Under the pieces are notes generated by a model that did not search any database, was not told where the DNA came from, and saw nothing but the letters and a program-made list of their open reading frames with translations. The position numbers and the translations under genes were made by a program. A stretch of DNA of 46,532 nucleotides from a virus: UHGV virus genome UHGV-0212526; one strand, given 5' to 3'. Position 1 is the stretch's first letter, and each line of letters begins with the position of its first letter. Positions 8,621 through 36,935 of the stretch are shown in pieces.

Positions 8621-8965
8621 TTACACCTCCATTCCCTCGTAAATTTCTGTCAGGGCCAGCTGGGTATTGGTTGCCTCTTCGGCCAGTGCCAGATTGGCCT
8701 CATACTGTTCTGTGAGTGCCAACTGTGCCTCTGTAAGCTGGTCACCCAGACTTACCACCTGTTCCTGCAGACGTCCAATATCTGACTCAGGCAGATACGC
8801 AAAGACCGGCTGTGGATTACCAGCATTGGTCACATCAATATGGTCCAGTCTCGCACCATCGGGAATATCTACCCACATGCACTGCAGGCCTTGTGGTACC
8901 CGTTCCTCGCCATACATAATAGTCCAAATACGGCCGGTGTCGTCATAGATTACTAATGCTTTCAT
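8621..8965 (-). CDS. hypothetical phage protein, tentatively XkdW-like
   Basis: 114 aa; N-terminal globular part then repetitive coiled region (QLALTEQYEANLALAEEATNTQLALTE); position before XkdX-like genes as in PBSX. Confidence 0.4.
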   Translation of the reverse strand: MKALVIYDDTGRIWTIMYGEERVPQGLQCMWVDIPDGARLDHIDVTNAGNPQPVFAYLPESDIGRLQEQVVSLGDQLTEAQLALTEQYEANLALAEEATNTQLALTEIYEGMEV

Positions 8966-9956: not shown

Positions 9957-10112
9957 AGCGTGGGAGAATTAGCCCTGCGCCCCTTCAGCCTGGCTCCCGG
10001 CGATATCCGCCCGTATCAGGGATTTAATGGCTCCCTGTACGGGAGTATCCCAAAGATTGTGTAAACCTCTAAACTGATGTAAGATAGAATTACTCAGTTT
10101 GGAGGTTTTATT

Positions 10113-30953: not shown

Positions 30954-32333
30954 CTATCCATACTTTATGAGCCTGCTAATCTGCCGTTCAAACGTATACT
31001 CAAAGCTGTCCAGGCTGTCAATATCGCTTGTGCCATCATCTAACCGGACATTCTTCGTCAATTCCTTTGGGTCCCACACGGCTGTGCTCAGGGCATCCAC
31101 AAGGCTCTGACACTCTCCCTGGACATAATAAAAACGCCCCTGTGCCATCAGTATGGCGGTGGCGTTAATCCTGTCATTAATTTCAGTCTTCAGTGCATTT
31201 TCTACACGTACCCATCCAAGTCCATGTTTACGCAAGCTGCTCCGGATGCCAGCTATCAGCGTCTGCTCTGCGCTGTCTGCATACACTGTTGTAATGTACC
31301 CGTACCTGCTGATAATCTTCTGGCAGAAGTTACAGAACATGGTCCCCAGCATTTCTGGGTCAATCTCTATCTGATTCCCCTTCTCGTCCTTGCAGCCAAT
31401 CCATTCTGATGCCAGGACAACCACGTTATGGTATCCCCTGGTGATGGCTGTGGCCGTGAAGGCATGGCCGGAACCACTGCCGCCAAAATCAATCCCCAGA
31501 ATAATTTCCATGATGTCTTTAGGTTTATCTGTCAGGCGGAACGTGTACTGCTTGGTACTCGTATCATCAGCAAACCGGCGATAGATAAGGCCGTTGGCCA
31601 CCACGCGCATTCCCTTGATGTCCCGGAGGTACCAGATACTGTTCTTATCATACCGGCTTTCTACCTCCCGCAGACGCTCTGGGGTGATGTTGATGTTGTC
31701 GTAGATGGTGCAGTGCATATAGTTGTATCCGCCCGGGAAGTCCCCTGCATCTGCCTGCCTTTGATACTTGTCTATATACTCCGCATAGATGGGTGCTCTT
31801 GGGTTATCCGGATTCAGGTCCCAGAACACCTTCAGGCGCTGGGCTGCCAGCTGACGGTTGAATGCCTCCTTGATGGTATTGTCATGATGCAGGTTAATCT
31901 CAGTTGCAATCCACATGCCGTAGGAGTTACCACGAATCTTTTTATAGCTGTCTTCTTTGGCAGCTCCCGCAAATATGATAATCTTCTGCTTCCACCGGGT
32001 ATCCGGTCCCTTGATATACAGAGCCTCATTGTCTTTATACTTCCCCCAGTGGCATTGACCACGGAATATCCATTCAAGGCCATAGCCATTGGCGTCACCG
32101 ATGTTAAGCTTGGCGTTGGCCATCGTGGATCCAGTGGCCAGGTGGATCCGGTCTGGTGTGGTTTTTAATTCATGGGCGAAGGCAAACACGTTATCCACTG
32201 TCTTGCCGGCACGGACCGCACCTTCCGCCACGTTATACATACAGGCTTCGCACCTGCGTATATAATCCTTGTGCTTTTCGGAAAAGTTAAACGGGATGGT
32301 CTTTTTCCTGACAAACCTATTTACCGCTGCCAT
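30954..32333 (-). CDS. terL: terminase large subunit
   Basis: Walker A GAVRAGKT near N-terminus; C-terminal nuclease-like acidic residues; overlaps TerS stop. Confidence 0.9.
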   Translation of the reverse strand: MAAVNRFVRKKTIPFNFSEKHKDYIRRCEACMYNVAEGAVRAGKTVDNVFAFAHELKTTPDRIHLATGSTMANAKLNIGDANGYGLEWIFRGQCHWGKYKDNEALYIKGPDTRWKQKIIIFAGAAKEDSYKKIRGNSYGMWIATEINLHHDNTIKEAFNRQLAAQRLKVFWDLNPDNPRAPIYAEYIDKYQRQADAGDFPGGYNYMHCTIYDNINITPERLREVESRYDKNSIWYLRDIKGMRVVANGLIYRRFADDTSTKQYTFRLTDKPKDIMEIILGIDFGGSGSGHAFTATAITRGYHNVVVLASEWIGCKDEKGNQIEIDPEMLGTMFCNFCQKIISRYGYITTVYADSAEQTLIAGIRSSLRKHGLGWVRVENALKTEINDRINATAILMAQGRFYYVQGECQSLVDALSTAVWDPKELTKNVRLDDGTSDIDSLDSFEYTFERQISRLIKYG

Positions 32334-33036
32334 AGATATCCCCCTCTATCTCCTCCATGTCCTCCAGCTCCTGGTTGTTCCCGGTTAGCTTATCCGTCTG
32401 CGCCCGGAGCTGTGCAATCCGCGCCTTCTGCTCCTCACTGGCCAGCTCCCAGTTTTTATGTAGCAGCTCATCATACTGTTTGATAAGACCCTCCAGCGTT
32501 TTCTGGGCTCTGGCCTGCGCCTGCAGGAAATTTCCCTGCTTGTCCCAGGCCTGCTGTACCTCCCAGCGCTCCTCTGTGACCGTCTCCCCATCCTTATGGC
32601 CTATCTTAGTGATGGTTACATCCTTCTGGTCCCTCACATACATGATGGACTGCGCCCGGATAATGGCGGCATAGGCTATCTGCACCTGGTCCCATAGGAT
32701 GTCCAGCGGGTCCGTGGGCATCTCCTGGATAATGGAAACGGTCTCCTCAGGCAAGTACTTGCTGAAGAAACCGTATTTTTCTGCGTTCTTATTCTGTTTT
32801 GGAGCCCCATGGCCAACAGCATTTTGATTACCCGCAGGAGCTCCTTTATGATTAGTAACGTTACCTTTCGCATTTGGTAACGTTACTTTATCCCACTTGT
32901 CTTGATTTTTCCATTTACGAATCTGTTCTTCTGATACCTGCAACTCGGCAGCTATGTCTTTCAACTGACGTTTTTGCCCACTGTCCAGCCATAGCTGCAG
33001 CGCTTTGTCCCTGTTAGGGCTCCTGGGTCTTGGCAT
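32317..33036 (-). CDS. terS: terminase small subunit
   Basis: N-terminal HTH-like segment plus GAPAGNQNAVGHGAPKQNKNAEKYG motif typical of one TerS family; start MPRPRSP with AGAGGTGG RBS (ORF track 32317..33045). Confidence 0.7.
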   Translation of the reverse strand: MPRPRSPNRDKALQLWLDSGQKRQLKDIAAELQVSEEQIRKWKNQDKWDKVTLPNAKGNVTNHKGAPAGNQNAVGHGAPKQNKNAEKYGFFSKYLPEETVSIIQEMPTDPLDILWDQVQIAYAAIIRAQSIMYVRDQKDVTITKIGHKDGETVTEERWEVQQAWDKQGNFLQAQARAQKTLEGLIKQYDELLHKNWELASEEQKARIAQLRAQTDKLTGNNQELEDMEEIEGDIYGSGK

Positions 33037-33052
33037 AATCACCACCTCTTGT

Positions 33053-33091
33053 CATGGCATAATAAAAGCACCTGCAGGTATCAGCAGATGC
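33053..33091 (-). terminator. terminator-like hairpin GCATCTGC-8nt-GCAGGTGC + TTTTATTATG (copy A), 15 nt upstream of terS
   Basis: 8-bp stem with one G.U, followed by U-rich tract on minus strand; shares CATAATAAAAGCACCTG (plus-strand) with the 27614..27643 element. Confidence 0.45.
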
Positions 33092-33121
33092 AAAAAATCT
33101 TATAAAATATCTATATTCCTC

Positions 33122-33150
33122 TTGACTAGCACGCAAATACGTGCTATAAT
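33122..33150 (+). promoter_or_regulatory. near-consensus sigma-70-type promoter TTGACT-17-TATAAT
   Basis: TTGACTagcacgcaaatacgtgcTATAAT; spacer contains palindrome AGCACGcaaataCGTGCT. Confidence 0.55.
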
Positions 33151-33179
33151 TATATTATCAAAAGAAAGGAGGAACGCAA

Positions 33180-33311
33180 ATGAATGAATCGGCCAGCGAG
33201 ATAATCAAAGACCTCTCAGAAGCACTACTCGCAATCGTCACCGCCATCTGCCTGATAGTAAAGACGAAACGAGATAGTAAATCCAAAAGGTCTAAGAAAA
33301 AGCGAAAGTAA
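33180..33311 (+). CDS. 43-aa membrane peptide with poly-Lys/Arg tail (type I toxin-like)
   Basis: Unlisted ORF MNESASEIIKDLSEALLAIVTAICLIVKTKRDSKSKRSKKKRK; AAAGGAGG RBS 8 nt upstream; own promoter and terminator. Confidence 0.45.
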   Translation: MNESASEIIKDLSEALLAIVTAICLIVKTKRDSKSKRSKKKRK

Positions 33312-33316
33312 GGTTT

Positions 33317-33340
33317 GGGGCTTCGGCCCCTTCCTTCTTC
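33317..33340 (+). terminator. rho-independent terminator GGGGC-TTCG-GCCCC + TTCCTTCTT
   Basis: GC stem with tetraloop followed by T-rich run, 6 nt after peptide stop. Confidence 0.55.
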
Positions 33341-33346
33341 ACATAT

Positions 33347-33382
33347 AGTATACCACATTCATTTGCTGAAATAAACATGAAA
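33347..33382 (-). promoter_or_regulatory. minus-strand extended -10 promoter (TGgTATACT) convergent with the peptide gene
   Basis: reverse complement of ~33347-33355 reads TGGTATACT; transcript would run antisense across the terminator, peptide ORF and its promoter toward the 33053..33091 hairpin and terS. Confidence 0.4.
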
Positions 33383-33537
33383 CTTTACCGTACAATATTG
33401 ATAGTACTCACTGTACTTTTCCTCTATGAAGGGTTCAATGGTGAATTTGCCGCGCCAACCCTGTTTGATTGGATTAAGTGGGCTGCATGGCTTTTCTGCT
33501 CCATCACCTACGTCATATGCTCCAGGAGGAACAAACG

Positions 33538-33729
33538 ATGCGATTAAAGGAAATACGAACTGAAAAAGGGTTATCTGTCCCAAAACTTGTTGAACTGTCC
33601 GGCGTTCCCCGTCGTACCATCCAGGACCTGGAGGCCCGGGGAGACGGCAGGGTATCAACGGCAATCAAACTGGCGGATGCTCTGGGCGTCACGCTGGATG
33701 AACTCTGCAGGGATGAGGCGGCCGAATAG
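33538..33729 (+). CDS. small XRE-family HTH protein (63 aa)
   Basis: MRLKEIRTEKGLSVPKLVELSGVPRRTIQDLEARGDGRVSTAIKLADALGVTLDEL is a textbook XRE HTH; AGGAGG RBS before ATG ~33538 (inside ORF 33478..33729). Confidence 0.6.
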   Translation: MRLKEIRTEKGLSVPKLVELSGVPRRTIQDLEARGDGRVSTAIKLADALGVTLDELCRDEAAE

Positions 33730-33811
33730 GCCGTCTTTCCTTTGTTTGTTTTGGGGTATGGGAAAGGGCCACCCGGAAGAGGCCCCTAATCATCGCCTTT
33801 TATATGATAAA

Positions 33812-34450
33812 TTATGGCTTTTCTTCCTCATCTATCATTTCAAGAACTCTTGTCACAGCATATATATTGAACAGTTGAAAAATTGTAGAAACGAAACTAA
33901 CTGTCCTCCACAGTATTATTCCAATAAAAATAAAATAAACCGCAATTAAACTTACTGCAATCACATTATTTACTATCATGTTTAAAAATAATGTAAAACT
34001 GTCAGGCAAACAAAACATCACTATTTTCATAATCAATGTTACAATTATCGCAATAACATACAATAGCATTAAATATACAAAATTCTCATTGATATCTTGT
34101 AATCTACTCTTTTCTCCTCCGTCACATACTTTTGTGTCTTTTAGAAGTTGAAGTAACATCTGTTTATTCATAAAGGCTTGTAGCAAGGAATATCCAGTGA
34201 AAATCACTCCGAAAAGTGCTAGTGAAACATTTAAAATAGCATCTATACTTTCTCTGAAAATAGTGACTGTTTCTTTATGAATTCCGACTATGGAACCGAG
34301 GATACAACATATAACTACTAATATCCATCGTGATTTCCTATTCTTCTTTTCAACTTTAAGAGCTTTGATTGCTTTAAAAAGTAACTTTTCAGAAGGTTCA
34401 GATTGAAGTAATTGTTCAATATTATCAAGATTTAAATTATCCATAATCAT
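33812..34450 (-). CDS. AT-rich ~212-aa integral membrane protein (about four TM helices), function unknown
   Basis: ORF 33812..34492 trimmed to MIMDNLNL start after GGGAGGGGG RBS; hydrophobic segments WILVVICCILGSIVGI, VSLALFGVIFTGYSLL, VYLMLLYVIAIIVTLIMKIVMF, VIAVSLIAVYFIFIGIILW; composition far more AT-rich than the phage backbone. Confidence 0.6.
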   Translation of the reverse strand: MIMDNLNLDNIEQLLQSEPSEKLLFKAIKALKVEKKNRKSRWILVVICCILGSIVGIHKETVTIFRESIDAILNVSLALFGVIFTGYSLLQAFMNKQMLLQLLKDTKVCDGGEKSRLQDINENFVYLMLLYVIAIIVTLIMKIVMFCLPDSFTLFLNMIVNNVIAVSLIAVYFIFIGIILWRTVSFVSTIFQLFNIYAVTRVLEMIDEEEKP

Positions 34451-34509
34451 CCCCCTCCCAATTCCACAAATCTTACAAAAACACATCCACATCTTCTCTT
34501 CGTAACCAC

Positions 34510-34538
34510 AGTATAGAACAAATGTTCGATTCTGTCAA
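34510..34538 (-). promoter_or_regulatory. consensus promoter TTGACA-17-TATACT for the membrane protein gene
   Basis: minus strand reads TTGACAgaatcgaacatttgttcTATACT ~60 nt upstream of the RBS. Confidence 0.5.
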
Positions 34539-34551
34539 ATTAGAATATTTA

Positions 34552-34570
34552 ATGAGTATAAGCTACTCAT
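34552..34570. promoter_or_regulatory. inverted repeat ATGAGTA-5nt-TACTCAT just upstream of the -35
   Basis: 7-bp arms read directly; candidate operator. Confidence 0.3.
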
Positions 34571-34723
34571 AATAAAAGGACACCCTATCTCTAGGATGCC
34601 CTAATCGTATCTGGAAAACATCATGGGGGATAAAACCAGATACCTCACCGCTTGCATACCCTGCGGCATTGTCCCGTAATGTACGGGTCTGTCTTATGAG
34701 GGATTACACAATACCGGTTAGTC

Positions 34724-34749
34724 AGCCGCCAGGGTGTGACACCTGGCGG
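34724..34749. other. perfect 9-bp-stem hairpin GCCGCCAGG-gtgtgaca-CCTGGCGGC
   Basis: in the 350-bp non-coding stretch between the ArpU-like gene stop and the membrane-protein promoter; followed on plus strand by cgTTATTTGTG. Confidence 0.35.
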
Positions 34750-34802
34750 CCGTTATTTGTGAGGAGGATGCTTCCGCCCTCTGGCTTCCGCATGATAACA
34801 TA

Positions 34803-35288
34803 TTAGCACTTTTCTTCGGGACATTGGGGGACATTTTCAAAAAATCTTAAATTTCGTTTCTTACAGCTATCTTCCGTAAACTTCACCCGCCTCTTCGGAA
34901 ACATCCGGTTCATGGCCTGTGCCACCTTCCACCAAGGCAGGCCATCTATGTAATACAGACGGAACATGGTCCGCACCTCGCTCTTTGGTATGCCCTGTAT
35001 ATATTCCTCCGCCTGGCAGGTCAGCTCCAGCAGTTCCGCCTCCTTACGCGCCAGAAGCTGCCTGTACCGCTCCCTCAGCCGCTGCTTCCGGTAATGCTCC
35101 GGCACGGGGTATCCCGTGACCTTAATGCTTCCTATCGTCCCATCCCGCCTTGTACCCTTCACCGTATCTGATACCTGGTGCGGCTCCTCCAGGAACCTGT
35201 CCAGCTTCTGAATCCGTCGCCTTATGTCCTTTATCTCCTCTTTCATCTCGCAATACTGTATCAGCACCTCCTTGTCCATCGGCATCAC
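34803..35288 (-). CDS. late-gene transcriptional activator, ArpU/RinA-like (sigma-70 region-4-like)
   Basis: 161 aa; C-terminal segment FRLYYIDGLPWWKVAQAMN resembles region-4 HTH of ArpU/ECF-like phage activators; position upstream of the packaging module. Confidence 0.55.
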   Translation of the reverse strand: MMPMDKEVLIQYCEMKEEIKDIRRRIQKLDRFLEEPHQVSDTVKGTRRDGTIGSIKVTGYPVPEHYRKQRLRERYRQLLARKEAELLELTCQAEEYIQGIPKSEVRTMFRLYYIDGLPWWKVAQAMNRMFPKRRVKFTEDSCKKRNLRFFENVPQCPEEKC

Positions 35289-35584
35289 CTCCTCTTCCGC
35301 TTATCCCTAGATACCACAATCGGTATCCTGCCCAAATCGTGCCCGCATCCCTTCAATACTTGCGTCACCCTGTCCCATTCATCGGCCAGTTCTGGCGCGT
35401 TCCCATCCTCCGCCCTGACAAAGGTATATCGCTTTTGGTATAGGATACCCACATCACTGTAATGCTCTATCTGCTGCCGGTGCCGGATGCCCAGCATTAC
35501 CATCAGTTCCGCTGCTCTGTACCGGCCGTCGTATTGGCCACAATCATACAGGTCGTAGTACACAGGTTTTGATGCCACGTACAA
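35285..35584 (-). CDS. hypothetical early protein
   Basis: 99-aa ORF overlapping start of ArpU-like gene by 4 nt. Confidence 0.4.
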   Translation of the reverse strand: MYVASKPVYYDLYDCGQYDGRYRAAELMVMLGIRHRQQIEHYSDVGILYQKRYTFVRAEDGNAPELADEWDRVTQVLKGCGHDLGRIPIVVSRDKRKRR

Positions 35585-35883
35585 TCACTCCCTTCGGCGG
35601 CTCCCGCAGCTCCGGAACCGGGCGCAGGCTGGTGTACATATAGGCCGGCGCCGTCCGGATGCGCTCCTTGATGGCCTCGTCGGCCTGGGCGGCCAGGGCC
35701 TTGCTGCGGTCGATGCGGCTGACCTTGGACTGCTTACTGCCTTTCTTTATCATAAACATCCTCCACCCATTCCAGTGGTTCTCCACAATCTTGACAATAG
35801 TCTTGCCCCATCTCAACCTTGCCGGCACAGTTAGGACACTCATACATAATGCCATGTTCCATTTCAAGCTTTATTTTAGCCAT
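35544..35883 (-). CDS. hypothetical protein with N-terminal zinc ribbon (CPNC...CQDC)
   Basis: true start MAKIKLEMEHGIMYECPNCAGKVEMGQDYCQDCGEPLEW at ~35883 after AGGACAAGAAGG RBS, extending ORF 35544..35867. Confidence 0.45.
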
Positions 35884-35913
35884 CCTTCTTGTCCTTTCAA
35901 AATCACACAAATG

Positions 35914-36081
35914 TCAGTTTTCCTTATTTTTGTGTGGAAATTTTACCTTATACGGACATCCCTGTATCCCGTCTCTTTGGCAGTCGATTTCTTTCTTTGA
36001 TATAACCTCCGACTGTAAAACGCAAGACGTACAAGTCTTATTTTTAAAACAATTATTGCAGTCACATATTTTTGTACACAT
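35914..36081 (-). CDS. small Cys-rich ORF (55 aa)
   Basis: Unlisted ORF MCTKICDCNNCFKNKTCTSCVLQSEVISKKEIDCQRDGIQGCPYKVKF..; GAGGTG RBS. Confidence 0.3.
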   Translation of the reverse strand: MCTKICDCNNCFKNKTCTSCVLQSEVISKKEIDCQRDGIQGCPYKVKFPHKNKEN

Positions 36082-36287
36082 CTGTTTCACCTCACAAATC
36101 CTAATCTACTGCCCTGTAGATAAAGGGCAAATACAAAAGTCCCATAATGTCGTCAACTGCCCTCGGCTGTATCTGGTGGTATATTAATAGCTCCAAACCT
36201 TGCCATACTAAAGCAAGCACTATGTACCACCAGCATGTTTTTAATATCTTATCCACTGCCAGTTCCTCCGTTTAGTAAATATTAATT

Positions 36288-36452
36288 TTATCTGCTACTA
36301 TCCTGCTCGCGGAAACTGTTGCAGAAAAATACTTCATGGATTCTTTCGTGCGTGATCGTCTCGCACTCACGGCAGTTATACCGTTCGCAGTTTATAACTG
36401 CACAATCTCTACATAGACACATATCCTCTGTTTGTTTACTGCACTTTGCCAT
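36288..36452 (-). CDS. small Cys-rich zinc-finger-like ORF (54 aa)
   Basis: Unlisted ORF MAKCSKQTEDMCLCRDCAVINCERYNCRECETITHERIHEVFFCNSF..; AAGGAGAAAGG RBS; overlaps the spurious track ORF 36392..36646. Confidence 0.35.
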   Translation of the reverse strand: MAKCSKQTEDMCLCRDCAVINCERYNCRECETITHERIHEVFFCNSFREQDSSR

Positions 36453-36470
36453 TCCTTTCTCCTTAAAACC

Positions 36471-36935
36471 TTAATTTTCCAACATCGGCAGCATTGCTGG
36501 CATCTGCCCCGTCTGGTATGCCATCTCAATCTGCGGTGCAATCCATTCTCCAGCCGTCCGTCCATCTGGCAATACAATATCGTACAAAAACTCCCGCTCC
36601 ACCGTGCTGATACCAGCCTCCACCGCCTCCAGCTTAGCCTTGACAATTAAATACAGTGCCCTCCAACGGCTTCGGCAGGCTTGCTCCCATGCAGTATGCG
36701 CCGCATCATCCGCCCGGCGTTGCCCTCGGCCCGGAGTATACCAAAATTCTTTCGCTGACTTGTCTGGGAGAGGAAGCAGAAATCGAATCTGCCGCCCGGA
36801 CATTGTAAATCCGATAACCGCCATATTAGCTTTGTATCCGCTCACAAACTGTTCTGCTCCGTGTGTTTGAACAAGCTCTTCTATATTTGCCTTCGTCCGT
36901 GCCACGGATACCGTAGTTTTTTCAGCATATGCCAT
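36471..36935 (-). CDS. hypothetical phage early protein
   Basis: 154-aa ORF, start codon overlapping upstream gene stop. Confidence 0.5.
   Translation of the reverse strand: MAYAEKTTVSVARTKANIEELVQTHGAEQFVSGYKANMAVIGFTMSGRQIRFLLPLPDKSAKEFWYTPGRGQRRADDAAHTAWEQACRSRWRALYLIVKAKLEAVEAGISTVEREFLYDIVLPDGRTAGEWIAPQIEMAYQTGQMPAMLPMLEN

Follow-up and report, generated by a model that had tools for sequence, protein, structure and literature searches.

The 46,532-nt virus genome UHGV-0212526 (the window, by which we mean this whole stretch) is that of a temperate Lachnospiraceae phage, and genes identical to those discussed here lie on an Enterocloster chromosome. About 1.76 kb separates the gene of an upstream transcription regulator from the small terminase gene, terS, and the question raised by this locus is what that interval carries and whether it forms one module. 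An initial annotation, made from the letters alone, had taken it for a single ~1.7-kb accessory island. We found that the region is instead a mosaic cargo slot made of three separately exchanged units, which lie in the following order along the minus strand, the strand of the surrounding phage genes. As to what they encode, we lean slightly, at somewhat better than an even chance, toward a joint reading in which the slot holds an orphan RexB-type membrane gene on an SOS-type promoter platform together with a type-I-toxin-like peptide module.

34802..34577: unit A, a structured non-coding segment after the regulator gene
34576..33763: unit B, a membrane-protein gene with its promoter and terminator
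33762..33100: unit C, a small-peptide operon

The limits of these units are breaks in identity, taken from exact-protein look-ups and from BLAST against the retrieved loci. A 699-bp cassette (34461..33763), comprising the gene for a 212-amino-acid (aa) protein with its ribosome-binding site and terminator, was at least 99% identical on at least 23 contigs, and the identical protein likewise occurred on at least 23 contigs with different phage backbones. The terminases adjoining this cassette fell into three different terS families, and its 3′ homology stopped at 33763, a break position that was the same in all loci. The part of unit C encoding a 43-aa peptide and an XRE-family protein was present on only some of the contigs that carry the cassette, and unit A was 75–93% shared with relatives bearing other cargo, nested parts of it being found by more sensitive BLAST. 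The window is itself a recombinant, with 99.8% identity to one phage type over 36500..33763 and 99.96% identity to another over 34461..32001. Since the three units differ in their distribution across relatives, we dropped the single-island reading, and a one-module island is ruled out. The comparison with related phages that had been proposed as a check also showed that the island is not kept in all of them: among 80 relatives of the window terS, many with a 94–100% identical terS had neither the 212-aa gene unit nor the part encoding the 43-aa peptide and the XRE protein.

The composition and position had been called those of a moron, and this held up well. The slot is a hot spot for cargo and carries signals of its own: the cargo has its own promoter and terminator, its base composition deviates (26–34% GC across the 212-aa gene, compared with ~50% in the flanks), and it is present or absent between close relatives. 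In these relatives, AT-rich inserts (33–41% GC) of 0.5–3.4 kb occupy the interval between regulator and terS, and they include several distinct pairs of a soluble protein of ~300 aa with a multi-helix membrane protein of 185–245 aa, a pair of 156 and 518 aa, and single membrane proteins. One relative carries in the same slot (L068:1445-2773) a dGTPase defence gene (PADLOC 5e-105; HD + HD_assoc), followed by a 195-aa open reading frame (ORF). BLASTP and hhalign detected no relationship among the different pairs of ~300-aa and transmembrane (TM) proteins, and their common origin is therefore unproven. Known moron slots, such as the position of stx between Q/PR′ and the lysis genes of lambdoid phages or that of HK97 gp15, resemble this one in holding cargo with its own promoter and terminator between a late regulator and the first late genes, and in the high variability of that cargo between close relatives; they differ in regulator family and host clade, and the cargo here consists mostly of pairs of a soluble and a four-TM protein.

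Two side observations concern the slot as a whole. Upstream of terS, L086 (2420-3403) encodes one protein of 327 aa, soluble in its N-terminal half and with about four membrane helices toward its C-terminus, which could be a fused counterpart of the two-gene cargos. In many relatives the conserved string CCCCAAAACAAACAAAG follows the cargo terminators upstream of terS, as it does at 33740-33756 of the window; the right-hand recombination junction of the slot lies at this string.

Unit C, which adjoins terS, contains the following features, two of which (the operator palindrome and the 56-aa peptide) were absent from the initial annotation.

33122..33150, plus strand: promoter TTGACT-17-TATAAT (11/12, with TG)
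33127..33146, no strand: operator palindrome TAGCACG-N6-CGTGCTA in the promoter spacer
33180..33311, plus strand: 43-aa peptide with an acidic N-terminus, one hydrophobic helix (~residues 11-30) and a lysine/arginine (K/R)-rich tail
33317..33330, no strand: GC hairpin GGGGC-N4-GCCCC (−13.5 kcal/mol), then an interrupted T-run
33347..33357, minus strand: antisense extended −10 promoter TGTGGTATACT, of the Firmicute TRTG-n-TATAAT type
33377..33547, plus strand: 56-aa two-helix membrane peptide
33538..33729, plus strand: 63-aa XRE-family helix-turn-helix protein (PF01381, 1e-8), the last gene of the operon
33068..33091, minus strand: intrinsic terminator directly upstream of terS (−13.8 kcal/mol), the predicted 3′ end of the antisense RNA

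Much of what had been described here was found again, including the plus-strand promoter, the 43-aa peptide with its hydrophobic helix and basic tail (11 K/R in the last 16 residues), the small XRE protein, the minus-strand extended −10 element beyond the peptide hairpin, and the terminator hairpin just before terS. The hairpin after the peptide gene had been called a clean GC-stem terminator; the stem is there, with a T-run that is interrupted, and on the sequence it is a partial terminator of the peptide mRNA that would also form the 5′ stem-loop of the predicted antisense RNA. We found no other promoter ahead of the 56-aa ORF and the XRE gene, which suggests that the three genes form one operon with a leaky internal hairpin. 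The XRE gene overlaps the 56-aa ORF by 10 nt, has a strong ribosome-binding site, AGGAGG, 8 nt upstream of its start and ends in a clean terminator (33715-33737). The operator palindrome occurs once in the window, and in relatives the arms stay constant and the centre differs; other modules have at least seven types of palindrome in that same spacer. The XRE protein is probably an autorepressor that acts through the palindrome. The unit had been compared to the type I toxin–antitoxin pairs txpA/RatA and bsrG/SR4 of Bacillus prophage elements, and the toxin-like peptide and conserved antisense promoter bear this out in part; with a second membrane peptide, an XRE gene and an operator in its promoter, the unit is not a bare pair of the txpA/RatA kind.

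Both peptide frames show signs of being genes. The 43-aa ORF has GGAGG 7 nt upstream of its start, its exact peptide sequence occurs in 417 blocks of the collection, and between the window and L086 it differs by 12 synonymous and 8 non-synonymous codon changes (5, 5 and 18 by codon position), a third-position bias that makes it look like a translated gene. The 56-aa frame is conserved in L085 and L086, again with a bias of the changes to third positions (18, 7 and 34 by codon position), and an analogous TM ORF of 30–60 aa lies at the same place in unrelated modules.

The antisense promoter motif TGTGGTATACT is unique in the window and was absent from 100 shuffles; it is invariant in L085 and is improved to TATAAT, as TGTGGTATAAT, in L086 and in the unrelated module of L034. 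Hairpin and antisense −10 element are conserved together in all module variants, including those with unrelated peptides and DNA-binding proteins. A scan of viral contigs for the pattern of hairpin plus motif returned 59 loci, about 39 of which have a small ORF ending at the hairpin, and these loci hold at least six types of first peptide, one being another peptide of hydrophobic helix plus KSKKRRSPSKKKRRK. Each module inspected has a sigma-A promoter with a palindrome of its own and a 30–60-aa membrane ORF after the motif, and the modules usually end with an XRE or ribbon-helix-helix-like protein of 61–66 aa. Two modules with different operators stand in tandem around the hairpin match of L140, and modules lie away from a detectable terS in L086 and others, so that the module behaves as an autonomous element.

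If the predicted signals are used, an antisense RNA of ~275 nt would begin immediately ahead of the hairpin, run through the entire peptide gene and its promoter and stop at 33091..33068, and would be fully complementary to the peptide mRNA. The terminator at this predicted 3′ end is kept with compensatory changes in L085 and L061 and also stands in those terS relatives whose modules are different. The 43-aa peptide agrees with the published picture of clostridial prophage type I toxins, which are shorter than 60 aa, contain a TM segment and have a charged C-terminus (PMC6563280). Like C. difficile CD0977.1-RCd11 and B. subtilis txpA/RatA and bsrG/SR4, the unit combines a small prophage peptide with a hydrophobic helix and a K/R-rich C-terminus with a convergent antisense promoter that would give long complementarity. 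Unlike in those systems, the predicted antisense RNA would cover the whole mRNA and would start, rather than end, at the shared hairpin, and the 43-aa peptide is predicted to share its transcript with a further membrane peptide and a putative DNA-binding autorepressor. Unit C is most likely a doubly restrained small membrane toxin, type-I-toxin-like in its predicted features, which would serve prophage addiction or exclusion.

Several observations weigh against a toxin. Neither the 43-aa nor the 56-aa peptide gave a usable match in Pfam, PHROG, PADLOC or NCBIfam, and the module matched no known toxin family in these collections and no antitoxin-RNA family in Rfam at E <= 1. The ribosome-binding site of the 43-aa peptide is strong, and in L086 the antisense promoter faces a protein-coding, antirepressor-like ORF rather than a terminator, which suggests that it may simply drive downstream genes. 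These points lead to the best surviving of the alternatives, which we nevertheless regard as unlikely: that unit C is a convergent-promoter switch or insulator before terS, or that its leftward promoter drives downstream genes, the peptides being exclusion or immunity proteins. The antisense promoter does point at terS in the window and in L034, L061 and L085, the terminator just before terS in every phage of the group suggests regulated read-through, and a protein repressor within the unit is unusual for type I systems. Set against this are the terminator that separates the antisense promoter from terS, the close terS relatives that lack the module or carry a non-homologous one, and the copies in tandem or away from a detectable terS; we retain the type-I-toxin-like interpretation of unit C.

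Unit B and the segment preceding it contain the following features.

34577..34802, minus strand: backbone non-coding segment (unit A), with hairpin 34725-34750, central stem 34650-34718, hairpin 34607-34643 and intrinsic terminator 34577-34602
34552..34570, no strand: inverted repeat ATGAGTA-N5-TACTCAT
34510..34538, minus strand: near-consensus sigma-A promoter TTGACA-17-TATACT of the membrane gene (11/12)
34516..34527, no strand: palindrome GAAC-N4-GTTC (Firmicute LexA/Cheo box) between −35 and −10, abutting the −10
34449..34461, minus strand: junction repeat TTGGGAGGGGGAT, with the ribosome-binding site, at the spot of a missing 327-aa gene
33812..34450, minus strand: 212-aa four-helix membrane protein, RexB-type partner (likely start ATG 34444)
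33765..33787, minus strand: terminator of the membrane gene (hairpin, −16.8 kcal/mol)

A consensus promoter of its own had been proposed for the membrane gene, and it is present at 34538..34510, ~55 nt upstream of the start, giving a predicted 5′ untranslated region of only that length. Its spacer, CGAACATTTGTTCT, contains the palindrome GAAC-N4-GTTC, which the initial annotation had overlooked and which is the only match to this pattern in the window. In 23 + 19 related loci every match lay at the same promoter position, abutting the −10, with an N4 that varied (ATTT, ACAT, ATAT, AAAT, GTGC, GTAT), as did the flanks. The promoter is conserved, with variation, before at least four different cargo types; the stretch 34754..34449, which includes promoter and box, is shared with L024, L045 and L047 (a DUF6731 protein of 302 aa plus one of 185 aa) and also with L046 (304 + 206 aa) and L051 (302 + 243 aa). 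As promoter and box are common to loci with different downstream genes, they constitute a conserved platform for exchanged cargo. The motif, of the form GAAC-N4-GTT(C/T), has been published as the LexA box of B. subtilis and clostridia (PMC4234289). Its position in the promoter spacer suggests that the membrane cargo is probably repressed by host LexA and turned on at DNA damage or prophage induction; in other words, the membrane gene is probably SOS-controlled through this box, a putative LexA site. The arrangement resembles that of LexA-controlled accessory genes on mobile elements (E. coli tisB/istR-1, the colicin operons, GIL01), in which an SOS box overlaps the strong promoter of a membrane-active product, and it differs from them in that the box stands on a conserved platform with exchanged two-gene cargos. 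A short ORF within the platform (MWMCFCKICGIGRG..., 34492..34451, minus strand) is fused in frame to the 212-aa ORF in loci organised as in the window, giving a frame of 226 aa, and is a 27-aa ORF in two-gene loci.

One finding counts against SOS-type control as a property of the genes themselves: a Dorea-type pair (L176:3780-4020), composed of a relative of the soluble partner discussed below (50% identical) and a 213-aa membrane protein, has no GAAC-N4-GTTC upstream. SOS-type control thus belongs to the Enterocloster-type platform and not to the gene pair. It also seemed to us conceivable, if rather unlikely, that a phage-encoded regulator uses the palindrome as its operator, or that the palindrome marks a lytic or late promoter comparable to GIL01 P3, in place of a host LexA site. 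L008:891-1142 encodes an 83-aa protein consisting of the LexA DNA-binding domain alone (PF01726), such a protein, GIL01 gp6, acts at a late promoter (PMC6182141), and the promoter 34538..34510 does point toward terS; the window itself encodes no protein of this kind, terminators lie between the promoter and terS, and the box matches the host-type consensus and overlaps a near-consensus promoter, which is the usual layout for repression. Host LexA remains our preferred candidate for this box.

The product of unit B had been described as an AT-rich protein of 212 aa with four TM helices, convergent with unit C, and we agree with this description: four long hydrophobic helices are predicted. The structure prediction that had been suggested gave a four-helix AlphaFold2 model with a mean predicted local distance difference test (pLDDT) score of 78.5. 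It had also been said that the protein matches no nameable defence family, and searches against Pfam, PHROG, PADLOC and NCBIfam were indeed empty; its portrayal as an undescribed effector acting by itself did not stand, in view of the partner found in relatives. The 212-aa family is a uniform one: a word-indexed search found 49 clusters, an exhaustive one raised this to 322 representatives at E <= 1e-3, and almost all members are 200–225 aa long. In Enterocloster-type and Dorea-type prophages, copies with 63%, 54% and ~38% identity each follow a soluble protein of 313–327 aa and precede terS, and many contigs with the identical 212-aa protein also encode the 327-aa partner. The membrane protein is thus found immediately 3′ of a soluble component at 100%, 63%, 54% and ~38% identity, and since all of the diverged members examined keep this partner immediately upstream, the two genes look like parts of one two-component unit.

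An AlphaFold model of the partner, built from a 38-sequence alignment (pLDDT 76.5; predicted template modelling score 0.76), had lambda RexA as its best structural match and RdgC as its second, all other PDB chains scoring 6.5 or lower; the predicted soluble component thus has a RexA/RdgC fold. Foldseek of the partner against viral models returned four uncharacterised gut-phage proteins of ~300 aa (1e-10 to 1e-8), followed by RdgC (1.4e-3). By its modelled fold and its pairing, the 327 + 212 unit is RexAB-type, standing outside the RexA and RexB sequence families. By analogy, it most likely works as lambda RexAB does: a DNA-binding sensor would trigger the four-helix membrane protein, and the resulting depolarisation would abort infection by a competing phage.

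RexAB is the oldest known abortive-infection system and is poorly understood. Pairs of this type include lambda RexA/RexB, PP_5643/5644 of a P. putida prophage and those of actinobacteriophages (Sbash gp30/31, CarolAnn, Butters). The unit described here resembles lambda RexAB in being a prophage-borne two-gene unit with its own signals and a foreign base composition, in which a soluble protein of ~300 aa with a RexA/RdgC fold is directly followed by a four-helix inner-membrane protein. It differs in lacking detectable sequence similarity to either Rex protein, in the size of the membrane component (212 aa, with a 40-residue cytoplasmic N-terminal extension, versus 144 aa for lambda RexB), in its position between a late regulator and terS rather than beside the repressor gene, and in its use of a promoter with a LexA-type box instead of the repressor's promoter.

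The assignment to the Rex type has to be weighed against a series of unfavourable results. The 327-aa partner and its relatives matched nothing in Pfam, PHROG or PADLOC; the partner is not a member of the RexA sequence family (PF15969/phrog_12654), hhalign against lambda RexA gave 0.4%, and a PDB sequence search with the partner profile returned noise only. The 212-aa protein is not a member of the RexB sequence family (PF15968/phrog_14878), hhalign of its family against lambda RexB gave 0.6%, with a short C-terminal FQLFN..TR resemblance only, and Foldseek of its model against viral models found nothing significant. As a control, the Pfam and PHROG Rex models recognised the lambda proteins (RexA at 1e-97 and 6e-163), and PADLOC was searched without such a control. 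The fold match between the partner and RexA spans 161 of 279 RexA residues and comes from a medium-confidence model. Finally, the window holds the membrane gene alone: the RexA-like 327-aa gene is absent, which means that the classical sensor–effector mechanism cannot operate here by itself.

Could the Rex resemblance then be coincidental, the 212-aa gene being either a stand-alone membrane effector (for superinfection exclusion or a block of injection) or a functionless, decaying remnant? The gene has its own promoter, terminator and foreign base composition, the membrane protein itself has no sequence or fold match to RexB, and partner-less copies are common. We still judge this improbable, as the soluble partner stands immediately upstream in every diverged member examined and its structural matches to RexA and RdgC are well above the rest; we prefer to regard the window gene as the membrane half of a RexAB-type pair.

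The loss of the partner gene had also escaped the initial annotation, and how the partner-less form arose is suggested by its junction. In L001 the 327-aa gene is flanked by two copies of GGAGGGGGAT (8921-8933 and 9990-10002), and the BLAST alignments overlap there by 13 nt; the window and no fewer than eight more distinct loci pass directly from the first copy into the 212-aa gene. A junction between such 10-nt repeats points to deletion of the sensor gene. The partner-less form also lacks the internal TG-n-TATAAT promoter of the pair, which is itself conserved in three diverged versions; with this constitutive-looking promoter gone along with the sensor gene, the orphan keeps only the LexA-box promoter. 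The presence of the partner-less form in several backbones argues for its persistence, and because all copies are identical, substitutions do not allow its functionality to be judged.

Lambda offers a precedent for a rexB that is orphaned or expressed separately: there RexB can be made on its own, and an excess of RexB over RexA abolishes exclusion. On this basis the orphan might act in counter-defence, its product, made in excess during SOS or induction, titrating or blocking the RexA-like sensor of resident prophages with the full pair and letting the induced or superinfecting phage escape exclusion, and its 100% identity to the partner in full pairs from the same metagenome and host, its sole reliance on the LexA-box promoter and its occurrence in at least nine phage backgrounds would suit such a role, which we consider quite improbable all the same, the argument being purely inferential as to stoichiometry and the identity of the copies hiding any selection since the deletion. 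The orphan RexB-type gene on its SOS-type platform stays, for us, one half of the joint reading, with the peptide module as the other.

Both halves are variants of RexAB-type exclusion and type-I-toxin-like modules, and what is new is their sequence families, their location and the logic of their control. A wider reading, which we offer as doubtful, would see in gut Lachnospiraceae phages a LexA-gated platform with whole families of sequence-unrelated pairs of a RexA-fold sensor and a four-helix effector, exchanged through recombination at the conserved flanks, SOS-induced partner-less decoys that disarm this system in resident prophages, and undescribed, widespread peptide modules restrained by an autorepressor and a cis-antisense RNA, with the antisense promoter and hairpin as their sole conserved part. 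To our knowledge, most of what is known of RexAB comes from lambda, a few actinobacteriophages and one Pseudomonas prophage, and SOS-type control has not been described for Rex. A sequence-novel and well-populated Rex-type family in abundant human-gut Firmicutes would, if true, widen the reach of the system, and it offers natural sensor-less variants. A slot with conserved flanks, a shared promoter and exchangeable cargo is a practical place to mine for defence genes, and the small-peptide modules, in which one conserved antisense promoter and hairpin go with at least six types of peptide and at least seven of operator, provide a tractable set for testing the joint control of small membrane proteins by repressor and antisense RNA. 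Classical morons were not reported in a survey of Enterocloster (C. clostridioforme) prophages, which did not mention Rex either (PMC11318856).

The structured segment upstream of the membrane gene had been read as its 350-bp leader. The segment 34577..34802 folds better than its shuffles (z −3.96), and its RNA structure is predicted and unproven: RNAalifold on ten leader copies found 0 compensatory pairs among 43, in copies too similar to show covariation. Lying upstream of the 212-aa promoter and ending in its own terminator (34602..34577), it is not the leader of that gene. We also gave up an assignment of 34771..34449 to the 212-aa cassette, made when six of six exact terminator matches co-occurred with it, as sensitive BLAST finds this stretch beside other cargo. 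The ATGAGTA/TACTCAT repeat, proposed as operator-like, is present in the window; an operator role was rejected on the ground that a 22-nt deletion removes it in L003 and L009 and leaves promoter and genes in place, and the operator-like element of this promoter is the LexA-type box. Rfam returned nothing in this region for the island (none at E <= 1) and four related loci, and a tRNA scan of the window found none. In L034 (390-465) and L048 (391-466) a genuine tRNA-Met (CAT) directly follows the late-regulator gene, at a place that equals ~34709-34607 of the window; a T-arm-like string in L018 and L022 was not a tRNA by ARAGORN.

The phage genes at the borders of the slot are as follows.

34803..35288, minus strand: upstream transcription regulator, 161 aa, left slot border (PHROG 36 'transcriptional regulator', 1.7e-15)
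32317..33036/33045, minus strand: terS (small terminase), right slot border (PF10668, 1e-23; phrog_509, 9e-89)
30954..32333, minus strand: terL

A label of rinA/arpU for the regulator was not upheld, with no match among the RinA/ArpU models of NCBIfam, a weak one to DUF1492 (E 0.034) and that to PHROG 36. Megablast of 32300-35600 against deposited phages gave no match, and an exact look-up of a 505-aa ORF in the left part of the window found no record. The terminator scan returned seven terminator-like sites, with 2.1 expected from shuffles. Every phage of the group has one intrinsic terminator directly before terS and another after the regulator gene (window 33068-33091 and 34577-34602; upstream of terS in L055, L068, L079 and L089), from which it follows that late transcription probably needs antitermination, our suspected mechanism at the slot. 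At the 3′ end of the regulator gene (~34846..34806, minus strand) there is a direct repeat, ATGTCCC-cca-ATGTCCC, with TGcTAATAT; it is seen again in L018 and is a candidate for the late promoter. Among the structural genes of a related phage (L001:15945-16041), we also observed a skipping-rope RNA (Rfam RF02924), at 48 bits and above the gathering score.

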